Source: Escherichia phage Ec_YwIITB1 | DNA: 64,000 bases | Sequence record: PQ356294.1 | Direction: 5' to 3' (one strand) | Shown: piece after piece, positions 15,895 to 59,100 of the stretch | Position numbering within the stretch: position 1 is the stretch's first letter | How the letters are laid out: every line of letters starts with the position of its first letter | Translations under genes and position numbers: made by a program | Notes under the pieces: model-generated | Databases searched by the model: none | The model's input: the letters and a program-made list of their open reading frames with translations, nothing else | What the model was told of the DNA's origin: nothing

Positions 15895-17324
15895 TTATGG
15901 ATAGGTATAGATGATACCAGTTTCTAAAGCAGTTTTATGAATGATGTATCCATTGCGTGATTCTTGAACATCAACTTCTGGATAGTCTTTCATCATCTTC
16001 TGAAGAGTGTAACGATGCAGGTAGTATTTACTGTCTGGATCTTCAGTTTTCCAATCTTTACCTTCTTCGGTCATTTTTTGGATTTCATCCATAACCCACC
16101 AGCCGCACCAGATATAAGCCGAAGTACGATGTGGAAGAGGATGAACATAAGGCAATTCACCTTCTGGTTCCGGAGCAACTTTATCAGTTACCTGAACTTG
16201 GCCTGTTGCTTTAACTGTTTTACTATCATAGTCGGTTGCTGTAACGACAGCAGTAACTTCAATAGTTTGACTTCCAATAGATGAGGTGTCAACGGTGTAT
16301 ACATTAGTTGACCCTTCTACAGGAGAAGAATCTTTCTTCCATGAATAAGTAATTTGAGCTGCTTCAGGTGCTCCGTGACATTAGCCGTAAATGTAGCCGA
16401 AGCATCTTGCTGAACGTTAATAGAAGGAGGAGTCAATGTAACCTGTGGATTCATTGTCTTCTTATTAACTGTCAATGATACTTCATTAGAAGTAACTTCC
16501 TTTGCATCATAATTTTCAGCCGTTACTTGGGCTACACACTTAACTGTTTTAGCTCCAACTGTGGTAGGAGTATAGTTAAATGTAGTAGTAGTTTCTCCAT
16601 CGACCAGAGAACCGTCAACATACCACTGATACGTAGCAGACGCTCCTGGTGGCTGTGAAGCCAAGGTAGCAGTAAATTGAACTGGGGTTCCAATAACTCC
16701 TGCTGGAGGATTAGCAGGAGTTACGGCTAACGTAGTTGTCTGTGTTTTCTTATTAACAGTCAGTGACACTTCATTAGAAGTAACTTCCTTTGCATCATAA
16801 TCTGTCGCGGTTACTTGAGCTACACACTTAATTGTTTTAACTCCGCTTGCGTCAGGAGTGTAATTGAATGTAGTGCCAGTTGCTTCGCCCACAGGAGAAC
16901 CGTCAACGTGCCATTGATACGTAGCGTTTGCACTTGGTGGCTGTGAAGCTAAGGCAGCGGTAAATTCAATTGGAGTTCCAATCACTCCAGCATCAGGGCT
17001 ACCAGGAGTTACAGCTAAAATAGTTGTTTGTGTCTTATTTTGAACCGTGATAGTTGTCGTAGTTTCTGCTGTTTCAGGTTCAGGTTCAGATTCAGATTCT
17101 GGAACTGTATTTGTTGCAACGACTTTAATAGTCTTTTGACCTGCAGGTCCTTTTAATACATAGCCAAAAGTTGCCGCTTCTCCATCTTGCGGAACATTAT
17201 CTACACTCCAAGCATAGGTAATAGTTCCATCTCCAGTTTCACCACTGGGTGTAGCAGTAAACTGCTTGGTTTCATCAATAACTCCTGTTGGGGTTTTAGG
17301 AGTTATATCAACTGTAAAAGTCAT
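15895..17324 (-). CDS. hoc: Hoc outer capsid protein with extra tandem Ig-like domain; frameshifted near 16371-16375
   Basis: 335-aa ORF 16317-17324 (starts MTFTVDITPKT) plus 86-aa ORF 15895-16155 matching the Hoc C-terminus (ends GIIYTYP); alternate frame between them reads the expected Hoc sequence. Confidence 0.85.
16464..17039 (-). repeat. tandem in-frame duplication (~288 bp unit) encoding two Ig-like domains within hoc
   Basis: Two consecutive ~96-aa blocks (ILAVTPGSPDAGVIGTPIEFTA... and TLAVTPANPPAGVIGTPVQFTA...) with matching DNA repeat; boundaries approximate. Confidence 0.7.
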
Positions 17325-28178: not shown

Positions 28179-28182
28179 CAAT

Positions 28183-28204
28183 GGGGACCGGTCCCCATAT
28201 TTTT
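28183..28204 (+). terminator. intrinsic terminator after gene 54
   Basis: GGGGACCGGTCCCC followed by T-run. Confidence 0.55.
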
Positions 28205-28493
28205 ATTTACGGAATGATATAAAAGCAGCAACTGAAGCGACTAAACTGTCTTCAATATAAACTTCAATTTTTACCGGAGCTTCTGACTCAAATTTACCTG
28301 TTACTACACCTTGAAAAATGCTTTCAGTCTGTTCTGGCTTTGAAAAATTTTCAGAAGGAAAAATTCCGAACTTTTTATCTGTTCCAAAAATTTTGATAAA
28401 TTCATCATAAACTGCTTCATTGAAAGCGTTATCAGCAGGAATAACGCCTTCAACTACAAGTTCTTGACCTAAAAAGCGTAAAGAAGATTTCAT
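28203..28493 (-). CDS. hypothetical early protein downstream of alt
   Basis: 96-aa ORF with GAGG RBS and sigma70-like promoter upstream. Confidence 0.65.
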   Translation of the reverse strand: MKSSLRFLGQELVVEGVIPADNAFNEAVYDEFIKIFGTDKKFGIFPSENFSKPEQTESIFQGVVTGKFESEAPVKIEVYIEDSLVASVAAFISFRK

Positions 28494-28501
28494 TTTGTGT
28501 T

Positions 28502-28554
28502 CCTCATGTTATGTCAGTAAGACTATTATAACACAGCACGAGGGACTTGTAAAC
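28502..28554 (-). promoter_or_regulatory. sigma70-like early promoter plus leader and RBS (cassette copy A)
   Basis: Reverse strand TTTACA, 17-nt spacer, TATAAT, then GAGG and ATG 28493; 50 of 53 nt identical to 44191-44243. Confidence 0.55.
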
Positions 28555-30611
28555 TACATCTTGAACTTTTTAGACATTCCGTTGATGTTAACCAAAGAAG
28601 CCAAGATTTGAGAAACTTCGTTTTCCTCTTCTTTTGATTCTTCTACAAGGAATTGATTAAACCCAGCCATTGGACGAACTTCACCAGTTTCCATTAGATG
28701 ATCGCCATCATATACCGATTCTTCTAATTGTTCAGAAGGAGGAACGATTGTGCCTTCAATTAGATACTTGTTATAAGCAGTTTCTTTCATCATGTACGTG
28801 CTCACTTTATTAATCTTCAGCAAAATTCCACGTGGTAGAATAACTTCAGCTTCTGATGGAAATCCTGATAAATGACCTGGAACGATAACTTTGATTCGCT
28901 CAGCCCCTTTAATTACCATACCTACGCTAGCTTCAGCATCTTCATTAGCATATGCAGAATGACTACCCATATGCATTAAATCTTCAGCATCAACAGAACC
29001 TTCTCCTTCACCAGAAAATACTGCGCCGGAATCATCTAGAGCCATATAGTTTTTACCATGCTCACCGAAGATATTTGGTTTAAGCGATGTTGATACGAAG
29101 TTCTTGAAATAGAACATTTTATTTTCAATATTATGGCGTAAAGTTTTAAAAGTAACTTCTTGTCCACGATAAAGCGTAATTCCCGGAGGAAGAACTGAAC
29201 CTTTGGCAAAGGCAGAATCCAGCGTCTCGATGTGTTTAATAGCTCGTTCCATATATTCTTCACGGGTAGAATCTGGTTTACCCAAGAGGAACGAGTTCAT
29301 TTCAACATATGAATCTGCACAATAATCTTCAATTACAACAGACTCAGCCTGAGTTAATCCTTTTGGAGTTACTTCAGTGCTTGCGTATTCATATGCCTGA
29401 GCAGCAGATTCATTAATCAATTTATAAATGCCATTCATGACAAATTGAATAATAGCTACCTTTTCGTCTGGCGTAGCTTTAGAACCTTTAACTAAATCAT
29501 TGATAATTTTCTTAATAACATCAAAGCTATTAGAAATATTAATGTCAGCGAGATCGCTCAAAATTTTATCGGTTTTATAATCAAAAAATTCTTTATTCTT
29601 TAAATATTCTTGAGAACCTTGATATGTTATATCGCTCTGCAGTCTGATAGACGGATCGCGTAAACGTGCATGGGCCAATGCAATATGATTTCGGAGGCTT
29701 TCTAGTTCATAATCGTTAGATTTAAAACGAGAAGCACTTCTCATACCACCGATAGCTCCTTTGCTGAAGTTGGAACCAATCTGAATAACGCCAGAGTTCA
29801 TTGGTCCTTCTGCTTTATATACCGGAACTTTAGATTCAAACTCTTGATATTTCTTGGCGGCGAAGCTATCGCCCTGAAGTGAAGCATCGACAGTAGAATA
29901 TTGAGCTTGCGCTGCCAATCGACGACTAATTTTAGTTTTCTGAATAACAGCTTGATCCGTGCGCTTATCATTTTCTAAAGCAATAGAAGCAGCAACAGCA
30001 ACAGCTTTAGGAACAGCATTACCTGTTTTAACATCTACATAAACATCACCAACCTTTGATTCAACTTTTGTGAATAACTCAGTTGAAATAGGAGGTACAC
30101 CTGGAATGTCTTCTAAATTGGCATTTTTACGGTAAACCATAATATATGCATACTTTTTATCATAATCCCAGATTTCCTTTAAAAGAACATATCGACCTGC
30201 TCCTTTAGTACGTACTAAACGGTCAGCAATAACTTGCATCTGACGAGCTGCGCCATTTGTTTTACTTTTTAGTACGCGGAATAGGCATGCATCAATTTTA
30301 TACTGTTTCATTGTTTGAAGAGCAGTATCAAAAACCGCATTAATGACACCAATTGGATTTCCACCCAAGTTTTTAAGTTTAACTAATGATAGTTTCTCAT
30401 TAACACCTATCATTACGATATGCATCATTTTATCGCCTGGCTTAACGTTTTTATTTGTATCACCGCCAGAGGTGTATGTACAAAATCTAAATCCAGGAAG
30501 CACACTTTCTTCGCCGGCTTGAATAGCAAAAATTTGAGGTATTTTATGCTTAGGATTTAAGTTAACAACCGGCGCCGAAGCGCCGTCAAATAATTCTGTA
30601 ATAAGTTCCAT
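28554..30611 (-). CDS. Alt-like ADP-ribosyltransferase, second paralog
   Basis: 685-aa ORF; N-terminal ~230 aa closely similar to the adjacent Alt; ART-like motifs YRGQ, FVSTSL, EAEVILPRG. Confidence 0.8.
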   Translation of the reverse strand: MELITELFDGASAPVVNLNPKHKIPQIFAIQAGEESVLPGFRFCTYTSGGDTNKNVKPGDKMMHIVMIGVNEKLSLVKLKNLGGNPIGVINAVFDTALQTMKQYKIDACLFRVLKSKTNGAARQMQVIADRLVRTKGAGRYVLLKEIWDYDKKYAYIMVYRKNANLEDIPGVPPISTELFTKVESKVGDVYVDVKTGNAVPKAVAVAASIALENDKRTDQAVIQKTKISRRLAAQAQYSTVDASLQGDSFAAKKYQEFESKVPVYKAEGPMNSGVIQIGSNFSKGAIGGMRSASRFKSNDYELESLRNHIALAHARLRDPSIRLQSDITYQGSQEYLKNKEFFDYKTDKILSDLADINISNSFDVIKKIINDLVKGSKATPDEKVAIIQFVMNGIYKLINESAAQAYEYASTEVTPKGLTQAESVVIEDYCADSYVEMNSFLLGKPDSTREEYMERAIKHIETLDSAFAKGSVLPPGITLYRGQEVTFKTLRHNIENKMFYFKNFVSTSLKPNIFGEHGKNYMALDDSGAVFSGEGEGSVDAEDLMHMGSHSAYANEDAEASVGMVIKGAERIKVIVPGHLSGFPSEAEVILPRGILLKINKVSTYMMKETAYNKYLIEGTIVPPSEQLEESVYDGDHLMETGEVRPMAGFNQFLVEESKEEENEVSQILASLVNINGMSKKFKM

Positions 30612-30614
30612 GAT

Positions 30615-32669
30615 TTATCCTTGAACGAACTTGTAAGGCATGTTTGTAATATCTATGCAAGACGCAATAATTCCAAGAGATGATTCTACTTTTTGTTTAA
30701 CATTTGATGAAACAAATGATGCAAAGTCAACTCTGTCTTCTATTTCAATATCATCTGTCATTGCAACTACTTCACCAGTTTCCATTAGACGATCACCGTC
30801 ATAAATTACTGATTCGGTGAGTTCTTCGGTAGTCATAACTTCAGCTTGAATAAGCTTGTTGTTAGTTTTAGCTGTTCCATCATTGTAAGATGCGTCGGTT
30901 ATTTTATTGACTTTGACCATCAATCCACGCGGCAAAATGACTTCCATTTCATTTGAAGGCGCTAAACTTCCACCTGGTAAAACAACGTTGACTTTATCAG
31001 CCCCAGTAATAACCCATCCAATTCCAACTAAATTATCGCTAGAATTAACAAGTCCTTCATCGTTTTTATCGATAGAAATGTTTAGACGCTTTTCGTCTGG
31101 TAAAACACCCACAGCTGAATCAGTCATCCAAGTACCAAAAATGTTTGGATATAATGATGTTGATACAAAATTTCTAAAATAAAAAACTCGATTTTTTACC
31201 AATGCTTCATATATTGAAGGAGCAGTCATGCTTTGAGCACGATAAACTGTAATGCCTTCTGGTATACGGTCACCATTTTCAAAGGCTGAATCTAAATTAT
31301 TTATCGCAGATTCAATTTCTTTTTCACTCATTACCTCATATCGTTCTGGATTATATAATCCCAAAAGAGCATTATTCATGTCTACATATCCTGAACCTAC
31401 GTATTCACGAATTCCGCGTTTTTGTGCCGGTGTGTATTTAGATGAATCTTTATTTTCGACTATAGAATGCAATGACCATCCAACGGTAAGAGCATATCCA
31501 CGTAATTCTCTTCGAATAATCTTTGTTTTTATTGCATTCCAAGAATTTTGCACTAACTCATTCGCAGCATCTTGATTTAAATGCGAATGCTTGTTAATAT
31601 TTCTTTCTAACCAAGCACCTTTATATTTTTCTAAAGTATCATCAACTATAGAAGCAATAGTTTCTAAAGTTTTTATTGAAGTAATAGATTCTTTTCGTAA
31701 TCTTTCTAAAGCTTTATTTTTTATTTCTGCATTAACATCAGATTCTTTATCTTCAGGAATTATAGAAGCTTCTCTGAATGCCATTCCAGCTGTAACACTA
31801 TTAAGAGCATTCTCTAATGCAAATCCTGAAGTAGAAATAACAGTTAATTCGTTAGCATCAGAAATTAAAGGCGCGTCAGCGGGTTTATTTAATTCTGCTG
31901 CTGAAGCCTCAAATTTTTGAAACATTGGTGTTTCAAATCTAGAAGATTCTAATGATTGACTTTGTGCAATTGCTCTACGGGAAATTTTAACTTTAACGAT
32001 TACAGCTTGGTCAGAACGTTTATCGTTTTCTTGCGCAATAGATGCAGCAATGGCCTCATTTTTAGTTACTTGAGCTCCGGTATCTTTATTGATATAAACA
32101 TCGCCGACTTTCGATTCAACTTTAGTAAAGAGCTCTGTACTAATTTCAGGAACTCCTGGAATGTCTTCTAATGATACATTTTTGCGATGTATAAGAATAT
32201 ATGCATACTTTTTATCGTAATCCCAGAGTTCCTTAAGAAGGACGTATCTGCCACCTGAACGACTACGGATAAGTCTATCAGCAATAAGTTGAATTTGACG
32301 AGCTTGACCAGCAGTTTTAGACTTAAGAATACGGAGCATGCAGGCATCAATTTTATACTGACGCATCGTTTGCATTGCAACAGTAAAAACTGAATTGATA
32401 TAATTAATTGGGCTTGGACCGAGACCTTTTAATTTAGCGATTGAACCTTTAGCAGTTAATGTAAAAGGAACAATATGCATCATTTTATCGCCCATCTTTA
32501 AATCGCGATTAGTATCACCTCCAGATGTGTAGGTACATAAACGAAAACCTGGTTGTTCAATTGCGTCATCAACATGAACTGAAAAAATTTGCGGTATTTT
32601 CTTCTTTGGATTTAAGTTTGTAATCGGAAGAGTAGTATCTTCGTCAAATAATTCTGTAATGAGTTCCAT
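30615..32669 (-). CDS. alt: Alt ADP-ribosyltransferase (virion-packaged)
   Basis: ORF open from 32672 (MMELITE); second ATG 32669 better spaced from GAGGA; motifs YRAQ, FVSTSL, EMEVILPRG; late promoter upstream. Confidence 0.85.
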   Translation of the reverse strand: MELITELFDEDTTLPITNLNPKKKIPQIFSVHVDDAIEQPGFRLCTYTSGGDTNRDLKMGDKMMHIVPFTLTAKGSIAKLKGLGPSPINYINSVFTVAMQTMRQYKIDACMLRILKSKTAGQARQIQLIADRLIRSRSGGRYVLLKELWDYDKKYAYILIHRKNVSLEDIPGVPEISTELFTKVESKVGDVYINKDTGAQVTKNEAIAASIAQENDKRSDQAVIVKVKISRRAIAQSQSLESSRFETPMFQKFEASAAELNKPADAPLISDANELTVISTSGFALENALNSVTAGMAFREASIIPEDKESDVNAEIKNKALERLRKESITSIKTLETIASIVDDTLEKYKGAWLERNINKHSHLNQDAANELVQNSWNAIKTKIIRRELRGYALTVGWSLHSIVENKDSSKYTPAQKRGIREYVGSGYVDMNNALLGLYNPERYEVMSEKEIESAINNLDSAFENGDRIPEGITVYRAQSMTAPSIYEALVKNRVFYFRNFVSTSLYPNIFGTWMTDSAVGVLPDEKRLNISIDKNDEGLVNSSDNLVGIGWVITGADKVNVVLPGGSLAPSNEMEVILPRGLMVKVNKITDASYNDGTAKTNNKLIQAEVMTTEELTESVIYDGDRLMETGEVVAMTDDIEIEDRVDFASFVSSNVKQKVESSLGIIASCIDITNMPYKFVQG

Positions 32670-32692
32670 CATATCCTCTCTAGTGTTTATTC

Positions 32693-37238: not shown

Positions 37239-37314
37239 TTTATTCTCCTTTGTTTGTGTAAGATAATACTATCACAAAGGAACCATACTGTAAACAACTT
37301 TGTGCAGTCTTTGG

Positions 37315-43338: not shown

Positions 43339-43688
43339 TTAGAAAGGTCCTGGATGTCTTCTGCAAACTTGTTGAAGGAGTTGTTGATTTGTTTTTCAAC
43401 CAATCCTGGCTTATGAGCCACCACATCCGCCTTCTTTGCGTCTTTGCGCAGTTTTTCATTTTCACGCTCAATAGCAGCAATTGCCTCACGATTTTTATTA
43501 TTCATCGCATCAATATAATTATACTGAATTCGCAAATTATTTAATGCTAAAGCGTTTTCATTGGCCGTTTTTGTAATTTCTACAACAGACGTTTCTAATC
43601 TTTCAATTTTATTTTTTAAAATTAAAGAAGTTCCGCCCAATGCAATTACAATTAATAACAAACCTGTTGTCGTATTACTTAATTGCAT
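43335..43688 (-). CDS. i-spanin (inner membrane, coiled-coil)
   Basis: 117-aa ORF; N-terminal hydrophobic helix LLLIVIALGG followed by coiled-coil-like region. Confidence 0.75.
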   Translation of the reverse strand: MQLSNTTTGLLLIVIALGGTSLILKNKIERLETSVVEITKTANENALALNNLRIQYNYIDAMNNKNREAIAAIERENEKLRKDAKKADVVAHKPGLVEKQINNSFNKFAEDIQDLSK

Positions 43689-44182
43689 AAAGTTTTAATA
43701 ACCTCTATAATATCGTCTTGAGAAAGACCGTTAATTAAAATATGATGTTCAGCAGGAGATTTAGAAATTTTAAAGCATGCCTCAACATCTTCTGCCATAT
43801 CTGATGCGCTACGATTTGGATTACTAATTCCAAGACGATGTTTTCCCGTCAAAGGATTAACGATGATATAGCATTTACAGTTATTAATATGAACATTAGG
43901 TTGAGTCTGATTAATGAACACATCACAATCATATTTCGCAAGCTGATTTTCTAAAAAGACTTTCATCTCCTCAACCGCATCAGGAAGCATATCACGGGCT
44001 TGCTCAAGACGACGATTTCGATATTCTTTAATGGTCGTTTTCCGCTTGACTTGCTTAGCTAAATCTTTCTTAAGATCGGTGATATATCCAACTCGACGAT
44101 TTCCTTTAAATACAGAAATCCCATCTGTAGTATCACCGTATGCTTCAACGACCATCTCAGTAGTAATAAGCTGCAAATCCAT
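43679..44182 (-). CDS. alc: Alc transcription terminator (host transcription shutoff)
   Basis: 167-aa ORF; T4 homolog; early promoter upstream. Confidence 0.9.
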   Translation of the reverse strand: MDLQLITTEMVVEAYGDTTDGISVFKGNRRVGYITDLKKDLAKQVKRKTTIKEYRNRRLEQARDMLPDAVEEMKVFLENQLAKYDCDVFINQTQPNVHINNCKCYIIVNPLTGKHRLGISNPNRSASDMAEDVEACFKISKSPAEHHILINGLSQDDIIEVIKTLCN

Positions 44183-44190
44183 TATAAAGT

Positions 44191-44243
44191 CCTCATGTTA
44201 TGTCAGTAAGACTACTGTAACACAGCACGAGGGACTTGTAAAC
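44191..44243 (-). promoter_or_regulatory. sigma70-like early promoter plus leader and RBS for alc (cassette copy B)
   Basis: Reverse strand TTTACA, 17-nt spacer, TACAGT, GAGG, ATG 44182; near-identical to 28502-28554. Confidence 0.5.
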
Positions 44244-44246
44244 AGC

Positions 44247-45834
<1,588 letters not shown>

Positions 45835-52102: not shown

Positions 52103-52488
52103 CTACTTTTTGAAAGTTTTTCGCAAAAGTTCAATGATTTCATCTACATTGTTTTCATCAACAATGCAGTGAATTTTTGTTACGCCAGAAACCTTGTCTT
52201 CGACTTCATCTTCTTCGGAAGTCGGTTCTTTATACTCACGAAAACAATGAAATTCGTCTTCGCAAATTTCTAAAAGTCTATCTTTGAGGTAAAAATGCTT
52301 TCCGTTAGCGCACAAATGATTTCGGTTACATAATCAAAGCCATCTAAATTTGATATTGATTTAACTTCAAACCAACCACCATTTTCTTGAATGATGCCGA
52401 CCATATTAGTATTTGATGAACTAATATCAATGAAAGATTTAATACGATGTATCAATAAGTCTTGGAACAAGTTCATACTTTTTGCCAA
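52103..52488 (-). CDS. hypothetical protein (frd.3 position), frameshifted near 52302-52314
   Basis: 72-aa and 70-aa ORFs overlapping in different frames; together one ~128-aa product. Confidence 0.55.
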
Positions 52489-56185: not shown

Positions 56186-59100
56186 ATGGCCGAGATTAAA
56201 AGAAAGTTCAGAGCAGAAGATGGTCTGGACGCAGGTGGCGATAAAATAATCAACGTAGCTTTAGCTGATCGTACCGTAGGAACTGACGGTGTTAACGTTG
56301 ATTACTTAATTCAAGAAAACACAGTTCAACAATACGATCCAACTCGTGGATATTTAAAAGATTTTGTAATCATTTATAATAATCGTTTTTGGGCAGCAAC
56401 GGATAATATTCCAAAACCAGCGGGAAGTTTTAATAGAATTCGTTGGAAAGCATTACGTACTGATGCAAACTGGACAACTGTTTCGTCAGGACCTTATCAA
56501 TTAAAGTCAGGTGAATCAATTTCAGTTAATACTGCAGCAGGAAATGATATCACATTTACTTTGCCAACTTCTCCAATTGATGGAGATACTATCGTTCTTC
56601 AAGATATTGGTGGAAAACCTGGAGTTAACCAAGTTTTAATTGTAGCTCCAGTGCAAAGTATTGTAAACTTTAGAGGCGAACAAGTACGTTCAGTACTAAT
56701 GACTCATCCAAAGTCACAGATAGTTTTCATTTTTAATAATCGTTTGTGGCAAATGTATGTTGCTGATTATAGCAGAGAAGCTGTAGTTGTGACTCCAGCA
56801 AGTTTCTATCAAGCGCAATCAAACGATTTTATCGTGCGTAGATTTACTTCCGCAGCGCCGATTAATATTAAACTTCCGAGATTTGCTAATCATGGCGATA
56901 TTATTAATTTCGTTGATTTAGATAAATTAAATCCACTTTATCATACAATTGTCACGACATATGATGAAACAACTTCAGTACAAGAAGTTGGAACTCATTC
57001 CATTGAAGGCCGTACATCGATTGACGGTTTCTTGATGTTTGATGATAGTGAAAAATTATGGAGATTGTTTGACGGGGATAGTAAAGCACGTTTACGCATT
57101 ATAACGACTAATTCAAACATTCGTCCAAATGAAGAAGTTATGGTATTTGGTGCGAATAACGGAACAACTCAAACGATTGAGCTTCAGCTTCCAACTAATA
57201 TTTCTGTTGGTGATACTGTTAAAATTTCCATGAATTACATGAGAAAAGGACAAACAGTTAAAATCAAAGCTGCCGGTGAAGATAAAATTGCTTCTTCAGT
57301 TCAATTGCTGCAATTCCCAAAACGCTCAGAATATCCACCTGAAGCTGAATGGGTGACTGTTCAAGAATTAGTTTTTAACGGTGAAACTAATTATGTTCCA
57401 GTTTTACAGCTTGCTTATATTGAAGATTCTGACGGAAAATACTGGGTTGTACAGCAAAACGTTCCAACTGTTGAAAGAGTCGATTCTTTAAATAATTCTA
57501 CTAGAGCAAGATTAGGCGTAATTGCTTTAGCTACACAAGCCCAAGCTAACGTTGATTTAGAAAATTCTCCACAAAAAGAATTAGCAATTACTCCAGAAAC
57601 ATTAGCTAACCGTACTGCTACAGAAACTCGTAGAGGTATCGCAAGAATAGCAACTACTGCTCAAGTAAATCAGAACACTACATTCTCTTTTGCTGATGAC
57701 CTTATCATCACTCCTAAAAAGCTGAATGAAAGAACTGCTACAGAAACTCGCAGAGGTGTCGCTGAAATTGCTACGCAGCAGGAAACTAATACAGGTACTG
57801 ATGATACTACAATCATCACTCCTAAAAAGCTTCAAGCTCGTCAAGGTTCTGAAACATTATCGGGTATTGTAACTTTTGTATCTACCGCAGGAGCTACTCC
57901 AGCCTCTAGTCGTGAATTAAATGGTACAAATGTTTATAATAAAAATACTAATAATTTAGTTGTTTCGCCTAAAGCACTGGATCAGTATAAAGCTACTCCA
58001 ACGCAACAAGGTGCAGTAATTTTAGCAGTTGAAAGTGAAGTAATTGCTGGACAAAGCCAAGAAGGATGGGCAAATGCGGTTGTAACACCAGAAACGTTAC
58101 ATAAAAAGACATCAACTGATGGAAGAATTGGTTTAATTGAAATTGCTACGCAAAGCGAAGTTAATACAGGAACTGATTATACTCGCGCAGTCACTCCTAA
58201 AACTTTAAATGACCGTAGAGCAACTGAAAGTTTAAGTGGTATATCTGAAATTGCTACACAAGTTGAATTCGACGCAGGCGTCGACGATACTCGTATCTCT
58301 ACACCATTAAAAATTAAAACTAGATTTAATAGTACTGATCGTACTTCTGTTGTTGCTCTATCTGGATTAGTTGAATCAGGAACTCTCTGGGACCATTATA
58401 CCCTTAATATTCTTGAAGCAAATGAGACACAACGTGGTACACTTCGTGTAGCTACACAAGTTGAAGCTGCTGCAGGAAAATTAGATAATGTTTTAATAAC
58501 TCCTAAAAAGCTTTTAGGTACTAAATCTACCGAATCGCAAGAAGGTGTTATTAAAGTTGCAACTCAGTCTGAAACCGTGACTGGAACGTCAGCAAATACT
58601 GCTGTATCTCCAAAAAATTTAAAATGGATTGTGCAGAGTGAACCTACTTGGGCAGCCACTCCAGCCATAAGAGGATTTGTTAAAACTTCATCCGGTTCAA
58701 TTACATTCGTTGGTAATGATACAGCTGGTTCTACGCAGGACTTAGAGCTATACGAGAAAAATAGTTATGCAGTATCACCATATGAATTAAACCGTGTATT
58801 AGCAAATTATTTGCCGTTAAAAGCAAAAGCTGCTGACGCAAATTTATTAGATGGTCTAGATTCATCTCAGTTCATTCGTAGGGATATTGCCCAGACAGTT
58901 AATGGTTCACTAACCTTAACCAAACAAACGAACCTGAGTGCCCCTCTTGTATCATCTAGTACTGCTACGTTTGGTGGATCAGTTTCAGCAAATAGTACAC
59001 TAACTATTTCTAATACTGGAACGGCAACTCAATTAATTTTTGAGAAAGGACCTCAAACTGGAACAAACCCGACTCAAACAATGACTGTAAAAGTGTGGGG

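Follow-up and report, generated by a model that had tools for sequence, protein, structure and literature searches.

Two near-identical early-promoter cassettes with a predicted Shine-Dalgarno-masking hairpin precede alc and alt.-3 in Tequatrovirus

We have identified an early promoter-leader cassette that occurs twice in a T4-like phage genome, ahead of alc and ahead of alt.-3, and in which the promoter spacer (AAGTCCCTCGTG...) can pair with the part of the leader that surrounds the Shine-Dalgarno (SD) sequence (...CATGAGGACTT). We propose, with a probability of roughly 0.6 for the reading as a whole, that this complementarity masks the SD and gates translation, that the cassette was transferred from alc to alt.-3, and that gene conversion has since acted between the copies. 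The window, by which we mean the whole 64-kb stretch of DNA that was analysed, is a segment of a Tequatrovirus (T4-like) genome with 98.5% identity to its best relatives and with its early genes on the minus strand. The cassette pair is genus-wide, T4 included, and is no peculiarity of this genome.

A search for the 54-nt pattern allowing up to 3 mismatches returned exactly two sites in the window, 28501-28554 (copy A) and 44190-44243 (copy B, GTTTACAAGTCCCTCGTGCTGTGTTACAGTAGTCTTACTGACATAACATGAGGA), both on the minus strand and hence direct repeats, with 52 of 54 positions identical. The same pattern had no match in 100 dinucleotide shuffles, and a repeat search recovered the same pair (96% identity, spacing 15,689 bp). 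An earlier sequence-only reading of this DNA had described a two-copy module, and its coordinates and orientation are borne out by both searches; its figure of 50 identical positions in 53 needs correction to 51 over the same 53-nt coordinates. On the minus strand the repeat reads GTTTACAAGTCCCTCGTGCTGTGTTA[C/T]A[G/A]TAGTCTTACTGACATAACATGAGGA, followed by 7 unrelated bases and the ATG. The sole two mismatches sit in the -10 hexamer, which is TACAGT in copy B and TATAAT in copy A, and spacer and leader are 100% identical. Each copy is thus laid out as a -35 element (GTTTACA), a 17-nt spacer, TGn, a -10 element (TAYART), a leader of ~27 nt, GAGGA, 7 nt and ATG, and the distance of 8 nt from GAGG to ATG given by the earlier reading holds in copy B (GAGG-ACTTTATA-ATG) and in copy A (GAGG-AACACAAA-ATG).

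Both cassettes occupy the gap from an upstream stop codon to a downstream ATG, with promoter, SD and ATG in order, and the genes that had been assigned to them are the right ones. Copy B makes up nearly all of the 64-nt rnlA-alc intergenic region (44183-44246, minus strand), which is bounded by the stop codon of rnlA (gene 63) at 44247-44249 and the alc ATG at 44180-44182, and for which homologous annotation exists in ime09 and T4. It serves alc (43679-44182, minus strand), whose product, of 167 aa, is the inhibitor of host transcription. Copy A lies between a 685-aa Alt-like ORF (28554-30611), whose TAG stop (28554-28556) is overlapped by the first G of the repeat, and alt.-3 (28203-28493, minus strand; ATG at 28491-28493), which encodes an uncharacterised early protein of 96 aa and whose assignment draws in part on the T4 annotation. 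Most Tequatrovirus relatives read GAGGACTTTATGATGGAT at the alc start, with two in-frame ATGs of which records annotate either; the alc start region of the window (44180-44189) reads ...TTTATAATGGAT, and because only the second ATG is left the start is settled at 44180-44182.

The ORF upstream of copy A is one of two full-length Alt-like ADP-ribosyltransferase genes in tandem, 685 aa each (28554-30611 and 30615-32672, minus strand), which share stretches of 73-94% nucleotide identity ~2,055-2,090 bp apart. The downstream member is reduced to the alt.-1/alt.-2 fragments in T4 and to a 128-aa ORF in phage N2, and the gene directly upstream of copy A is thus a variable spot. The alt.-2 region, full-length in the window, is truncated in both of these phages. 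All Tequatrovirus records keep the rnlA-alc junction.

Scanning with the sigma-70/T4-early pattern TTTACA-17-TAnnnT gave matches at 11 of 12 positions in copy A and 9 of 12 in copy B, and in both copies a TG one base ahead of the -10 hexamer makes this an extended -10. The copy A promoter spans 28525-28553 (minus strand; 11 of 12 plus TG), with TTTACA at 28548-28553, a 17-nt spacer holding the anti-SD arm, TG, and TATAAT at 28525-28530. The consensus scan places the -35 hexamer of copy B, TTTACA, at 44237-44242 (the T4 early form GTTTAC at 44238-44243) and its extended -10, TGT plus TACAGT, at 44214-44222 (minus strand), with a predicted start ~7 nt downstream, near 44207. The -10 hexamer of copy B in the window (TACAGT) is weak. 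Additionally, the flank upstream of copy A (ctaaaaagttcaagatgtag) is A-rich. That of copy B (cccagaaggatactaagct) is not: it is the last part of the rnlA reading frame, which leaves copy B without a UP-like stretch rich in A and T. A promoter is annotated at the alc copy in one GenBank record, NC_054924. These observations uphold the early promoter-leader interpretation of the sequence-only reading, and we infer from the sequence that both copies are active T4-type sigma-70 early promoters.

T4 time-course omics place both alc and alt.-3 in the early-RNA/early-protein class, rnlA in the early-RNA/late-protein class, and alt.-1 and alt.-2 among genes with middle RNA. This pattern is the expected outcome of a dedicated early promoter ahead of alc and of alt.-3. 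Neither a mapped 5' end for either promoter nor a translation assay was found in the accessible literature, which did not extend to the early-promoter list of the T4 genome review, and searches for T4 transcription-start datasets came back empty. A middle (MotA) promoter was also considered and rejected, there being no listed T4 middle promoter at either site.

The earlier reading had passed over a hairpin between the promoter spacer and the SD sequence. Folding and arm comparison place the 5' (anti-SD) arm of copy B, AAGTCCCTCGTGCTGTGT, at 44220-44237 (minus strand), wholly within the promoter spacer; the folded 3' arm, at 44187-44208 (minus strand), includes the SD, GAGGA at 44190-44194. The 3' arm of copy A lies at 28499-28520 (minus strand; folding) and likewise includes its SD, GAGGA at 28501-28505. 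The predicted fold pairs the SD bases with spacer positions 11-15. Read-through RNAs fold overall at about -17 to -24 kcal/mol with the SD paired, the values being -23.9 kcal/mol for copy B (z = -2.8) and -19.4 for copy A (z = -3.0) relative to shuffles; RNA from the predicted start folds at only -4.6 (copy B) and -2.5 kcal/mol (copy A). The inner stem overlaps the -10 element and the whole 5' arm lies between -35 and -10, and transcripts from the cassette's own promoter would therefore be unable to form the mask. A derived C (GTGCTG; T in most relatives) at 44225 (minus strand), and at the homologous 28536 in copy A, weakens the hairpin in both copies.

This structure is like a Rho-independent terminator in being a stable stem-loop that ends the upstream gene, and unlike one in having no T-run after the stem; with the terminator scan also negative in both cassettes, an intrinsic terminator was rejected. 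The Rfam covariance models gave no match for copy B, and the sole match for copy A was a chance sub-threshold miRNA hairpin (18 bits, with a cut-off of 90 bits).

Eight early-promoter cassettes in the window, the two copies among them, share GTTTAC, TGn, TAnnnT and a short leader. A hairpin spanning the -10 element is present in 6 of the 8, and 3 of these leave the SD free. Four further cassettes of the form GTTTAC-N17-19-TAnnnT plus SD plus ATG (minus strand) have their -35 elements at 52103, 40921 and 36903, where the SD is free, and at 37295, where it is masked; their hairpins have z-scores of -2.3 to -3.9, with the 5' arm in the promoter spacer and the 3' arm just past the -10. The cassette at 37295 lies upstream of a 30.8-like gene, and its SD (AAGGAG) pairs with the spacer as in the alc cassette.

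Comparison across lineages provides the strong evidence that the hairpin is under selection, and this evidence comes from the sequences of other genera. Within Tequatrovirus support for the stem is poor: there is no variation in the 3' arm and little in the 5' arm, and only about two-thirds of the 5'-arm changes preserve a pair (roughly 6 of 9 on our reading). The same rnlA-alc layout is found in Gelderlandvirus, Karamvirus, Jiaodavirus, Dhakavirus, Marfavirus and several IMG/VR lineages: GTTTACA, an arm directly after the -35, TGn, the -10, a loop, a complementary SD-containing arm and ATG. The arm pairs themselves differ by lineage, for example TCTCCATTTGGTT/AACCAAATGGAGA, TCCTCATCAG/CTGATGAGGA and ACCTCTCATTTT/AAAATGAGAGGT. 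In a set of 11 alc-cassette lineages, pairing of the spacer arm is much stronger with the SD region of the same lineage than with SD regions taken from the others: the summed duplex energy is -205.6 kcal/mol against -117 +/- 12.5 for permuted partners (0 of 100,000 permutations as good). Folding energies in these 11 lineages are -15.6 to -24.2 kcal/mol for the full cassette and 0 to -2 kcal/mol for RNA that begins at the start site.

Nine cassettes whose helices are in register allowed a direct count of pairs, in which both sides had changed in 4 of 13. Their covariation score was 0.218 against 0.139 for shuffles, with none of 500 shuffles as high, and exceeded that of all slid controls. A MAFFT alignment of 20 cassettes gave no structure with RNAalifold. 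The distance of the helix from the -35 shifts by 1-3 nt between lineages, and this approach was replaced by the partner-permutation duplex energies and the 9-sequence pair count. A covariance model built from the 9 sequences and searched over all loci was left unused, its alignment having mixed reverse-strand matches, other cassettes and out-of-register helices. The sense RNA is more stable than the antisense in 9 of 10 Tequatrovirus variants and the stems hold 1-3 G-U pairs, which together favour a role at the RNA level. The alc gene of Mosigvirus carries an unmasked cassette type and is without the mask.

We suggest the following mechanism. Immediately after infection, host sigma-70 RNA polymerase would start ~7 nt past the -10, producing RNA with a short unstructured leader that would be freely translated. 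RNA entering from rnlA (copy B) or from the alt paralogue (copy A) would instead fold into a hairpin of 20-25 bp and so hide the SD. Translation of alc and alt.-3 would thus be tied to transcripts from their own early promoters, and synthesis of the proteins limited to the immediate-early period. Folding and cross-genus covariation support the hairpin itself, and masking is the function that we consider these data to suggest. Masking may not be the primary role of the hairpin, given the three SD-free hairpin cassettes in the window and the unmasked alc of Mosigvirus.

Much of this architecture parallels the promoter-early stem-loop (PeSL) cassettes of T4-like phages (Arbiol et al. 2010, PMC2839356; Comeau et al. 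2014, PMC4122927), whose PST/T4 promoter consensus is TTTACW-N17-TAYWAT (PMC2839356; PMC4122927). This consensus agrees with the promoter pattern of both copies. Like PeSLs, the cassettes described here are intergenic, reaching from an upstream stop to a downstream ATG, with a sigma-70-like early promoter followed by SD and ATG, and have a stem-loop between -35 and -10 or overlapping the -10. PeSLs also occur as several similar copies per genome (here, two near-identical copies and six looser relatives) and have been proposed as recombination substrates that shuffle regulatory and gene modules. However, in our cassettes the 3' arm reaches the SD and has no U-tract, and the predicted effect is translational masking rather than termination. 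Additionally, this pair lies 13-16 kb apart around essential genes, and the trace that it has left is one of gene conversion or cassette replacement, not of ORF insertion or deletion or of mini-circles. PeSLs lie in hyperplastic regions beside variable ORFs, a point on which the two sites differ, the alt.-2 region being variable and the rnlA-alc junction conserved.

A second parallel is the masking of ribosome-binding sites (RBSs) in T4 e, soc, 49 and I-TevI. In these genes, long transcripts initiated upstream hold the SD or AUG in a helix, the promoter lies in the DNA encoding the 5' strand of the helix, and transcripts without that strand are translated (PMC3014915). The alc and alt.-3 cassettes share with these genes a predicted SD helix on read-through RNA and a promoter within the 5' arm. 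In the known cases the promoters are late (TATAAATA) and early translation is blocked, whereas here the internal promoter is of the early sigma-70 type; the timing logic would thus be reversed, with the predicted block falling on later read-through RNA. The T4 RNA structure review that covers these cases does not mention alc (PMC3014915). The cassettes also resemble the T4 early 'uber' promoters with UP, -35, TGn and -10 elements (Hinton 2010, PMC2988021) in their GTTTAC-type -35, 17-nt spacer, TGn, -10 and immediate-early downstream gene, but differ from them in a G+C-rich spacer conserved for pairing and, in copy B, in the missing UP-like stretch and the -10 of TACAGT. By its sequence-level features, the element joins RBS masking of the T4 style to a PeSL-like regulatory cassette, and it fits the masking class in all of these features except promoter class.

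Searches by blastn found the cassette in 499 phage (Tequatrovirus) records at 997 places, two per genome, T4 included, with the exception of one partial record. In Dhakavirus, Karamvirus, Marfavirus, Mosigvirus and Gaprivervirus, a different cassette stands upstream of alt.-3. It has GTTTACA and a -10, a spacer that contains the whole of a small hairpin (for example CACCACAAGGATGTGGT), and CATGAGGA left free. The alt.-3 flanks in these genera match the Tequatrovirus site up to ...ttcaaaatgtagTTTACAA and again from GAGGA onward. The presence of an unrelated alt.-3 cassette in the other genera suggests that an alc-type core of ~40-54 nt overwrote the alt.-3 cassette in the Tequatrovirus ancestor, between shared -35 and SD anchors. 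We thus envisage a masking cassette that was ancestral at alc, and whose core, between the anchors GTTTACAA and CATGAGGA, was transferred to alt.-3 in that ancestor. The preference of the sequence-only reading for duplication or transfer over convergence is supported by these comparisons, in which other genera have a different alt.-3 cassette within the same flanks and alc cassettes that share the Tequatrovirus architecture.

The rnlA-alc region of Gaprivervirus P896 lacks the usual GTTTACA cassette and has a GGGGTGTACAAGCCCC hairpin instead, and three further loci share its upstream sequence. P896 additionally has a small extra ORF between rnlA and alc (positions 154-387 of the P896 locus), annotated 'inhibitor of host transcription', that looks like a partial alc duplicate. 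A transfer from alt.-3 to alc in Mosigvirus was entertained and then softened: the unmasked cassette type stands at up to three places per Mosigvirus genome and at another Tequatrovirus locus, and as it is multi-copy its donor cannot be named.

Sequence comparison of the two copies points to ongoing gene conversion between them. We compared 20 copy-A and 22 copy-B sequences from individual GenBank records, representing ~20 genomes of the 499 and taken without a phylogeny; an exact-pattern scan of IMG/VR had given only 10 stretches, and the Tequatrovirus pairs hence come from GenBank. Among 13 copy-A variants, 8 were also found in copy B where 1.5 were expected (hypergeometric P ~5e-6), and sharing persisted with transitions only (P 1.5e-4). 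The derived C at 44225 and 28536 is present in both copies of the window and of its closest relative, UGKSEcP2, and in copy A only of LF73P3; another private change is common to both copies of phage N2. Parallel selection for pairing is no explanation for the shared C, which makes the stem less stable in either copy. Additionally, Dhakavirus-like IMG/VR contig 2706795356 has a hybrid alc cassette, with a 5' half of the alc type and a 3' half (ACCTTACACAAACATGAGGAGAACATTATG) that is identical, down to the ATG, to its own alt.-3 cassette; the hybrid keeps the SD mask (TCTCCTCATG/CATGAGGAGA). Some of the shared variants could derive from mutational hotspots or from a narrow set of tolerated changes. 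We suspect that constraint and occasional non-reciprocal exchange between the direct repeats have, since the transfer, kept the copies nearly identical.

The suggestion that the two regions are potential recombination partners stands in part. Non-reciprocal conversion receives indirect support from the shared polymorphisms and the Dhakavirus hybrid, but rearrangement between the copies, which had also been raised, was seen in none of the 499 records. Inversions would not be expected between direct repeats, and a reciprocal crossover would delete or duplicate 13-16 kb including DNA ligase and gene 31.

The main rival to masking is that the hairpin is primarily a transcriptional or RNA-end device of the PeSL kind, which attenuates or terminates upstream transcription or forms a protective 3' stem-loop, and that its overlap with the SD is incidental. 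The published PeSLs have stem-loops between or overlapping the same promoter elements, one RB49 stem-loop is reported to have terminator activity, and the hairpins of six of the eight window cassettes, three with a free SD, are readily accommodated by such a role. However, the stem is followed by the A-rich SD-ATG spacer and not by a U-tract, in both copies and in most other genera, and the terminator scan found nothing in either cassette. The 3' arm at alc also tracks the SD with lineage-specific complementary extensions, which would be needless for a mere terminator or 3' stabiliser. We therefore regard this rival as unlikely, although it deserves to be taken seriously. Far less probable is that the inverted repeat works as DNA, in a cruciform, a protein-binding site or a recombination site that aids cassette exchange, with RNA structure irrelevant. 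Exchange between the two loci does seem to occur, and the PeSL authors speculated on a recombination helper that binds stem-loops, but the G-U pairs and the greater stability of the sense RNA in 9 of 10 variants argue against this role. Arm sequences differ freely between lineages and hence offer no conserved protein site, and T4 recombination is reported, in the PeSL paper's own statement, to need only ~50 bp of homology and no special site.

It could also be held that the copies are alike through convergence on a strong T4 early promoter and ribosome-binding consensus, as T4 early promoters have an unusually long common consensus and the eight window cassettes have GTTTAC, TGn, TAnnnT and a short leader in common. 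However, the other six share these consensus elements only and neither spacer nor leader, no third site within 3 mismatches exists in the window, and the two copies are 100% identical in spacer and leader, differing at the -10 alone. With a different cassette between the same flanks at alt.-3 in other genera, convergence is effectively refuted by the cross-genus sequence comparison, and we give it almost no weight. We thus retain the reading in which a masked early cassette was copied from alc to alt.-3.

Alc stops host transcription. If the mask works, it would help to explain why Alc is strictly immediate-early although alc lies downstream of genes that are transcribed for longer, and would carry over to early promoters a T4 trick known from late ones, in which the promoter sits within the RBS-masking hairpin. 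Alt.-3 is a dispensable early protein, and mutants with a C-terminal extension of it let T4 escape the CmdTAC defence system, which gives the alt.-3 expression signal practical relevance. What is new here is modest: an anti-SD arm embedded in an early promoter and conserved at alc across genera, the replacement of the alt.-3 cassette, and signs of concerted evolution. The pair is nevertheless a clean, genus-wide case of a ~50-bp regulatory module copied between loci 13-16 kb apart and kept alike, and its copying and upkeep may be useful for thinking about the evolution of phage regulatory DNA. For phage engineering, the repeats are potential conversion partners, and an edit of one copy could be reverted from the other.

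More speculatively, and with rather less confidence than even odds would imply, T4-like early promoters may commonly carry an anti-SD spacer arm that acts as a general, unrecognised gate restricting translation to own-promoter transcripts, the opposite of the late gate known from lysozyme, soc and 49, with gated cassettes moving by ectopic gene conversion. The overwritten alt.-3 cassette of Tequatrovirus, the unmasked alc cassette of Mosigvirus and the Dhakavirus hybrid fit such mobility. If true, a gate of this kind would confine host-takeover proteins (Alc, and Alt.-3 in Tequatrovirus) to the first minutes of infection, and its mobility would make the translational timing of a gene swappable in one step.

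Other repeats were noted in the window. Between alt.-3 and gene 54, which converge, lies a perfect G+C-rich palindrome of 7 bp (ATGGGGACCGGTCCCCAT; 28181-28198) that has T-runs on both strands. From its sequence it resembles an intrinsic terminator working in both directions, and it carries that annotation in phage DalCa. A 288-nt unit occurs twice in tandem at 16455-17030 with 80% identity and a weaker third echo near 17276, and is probably a repeated protein domain within a structural gene. Finally, a 68-nt coding repeat is present three times at 57587-58257, with 65-71% identity and distances of 120 and 483 nt.
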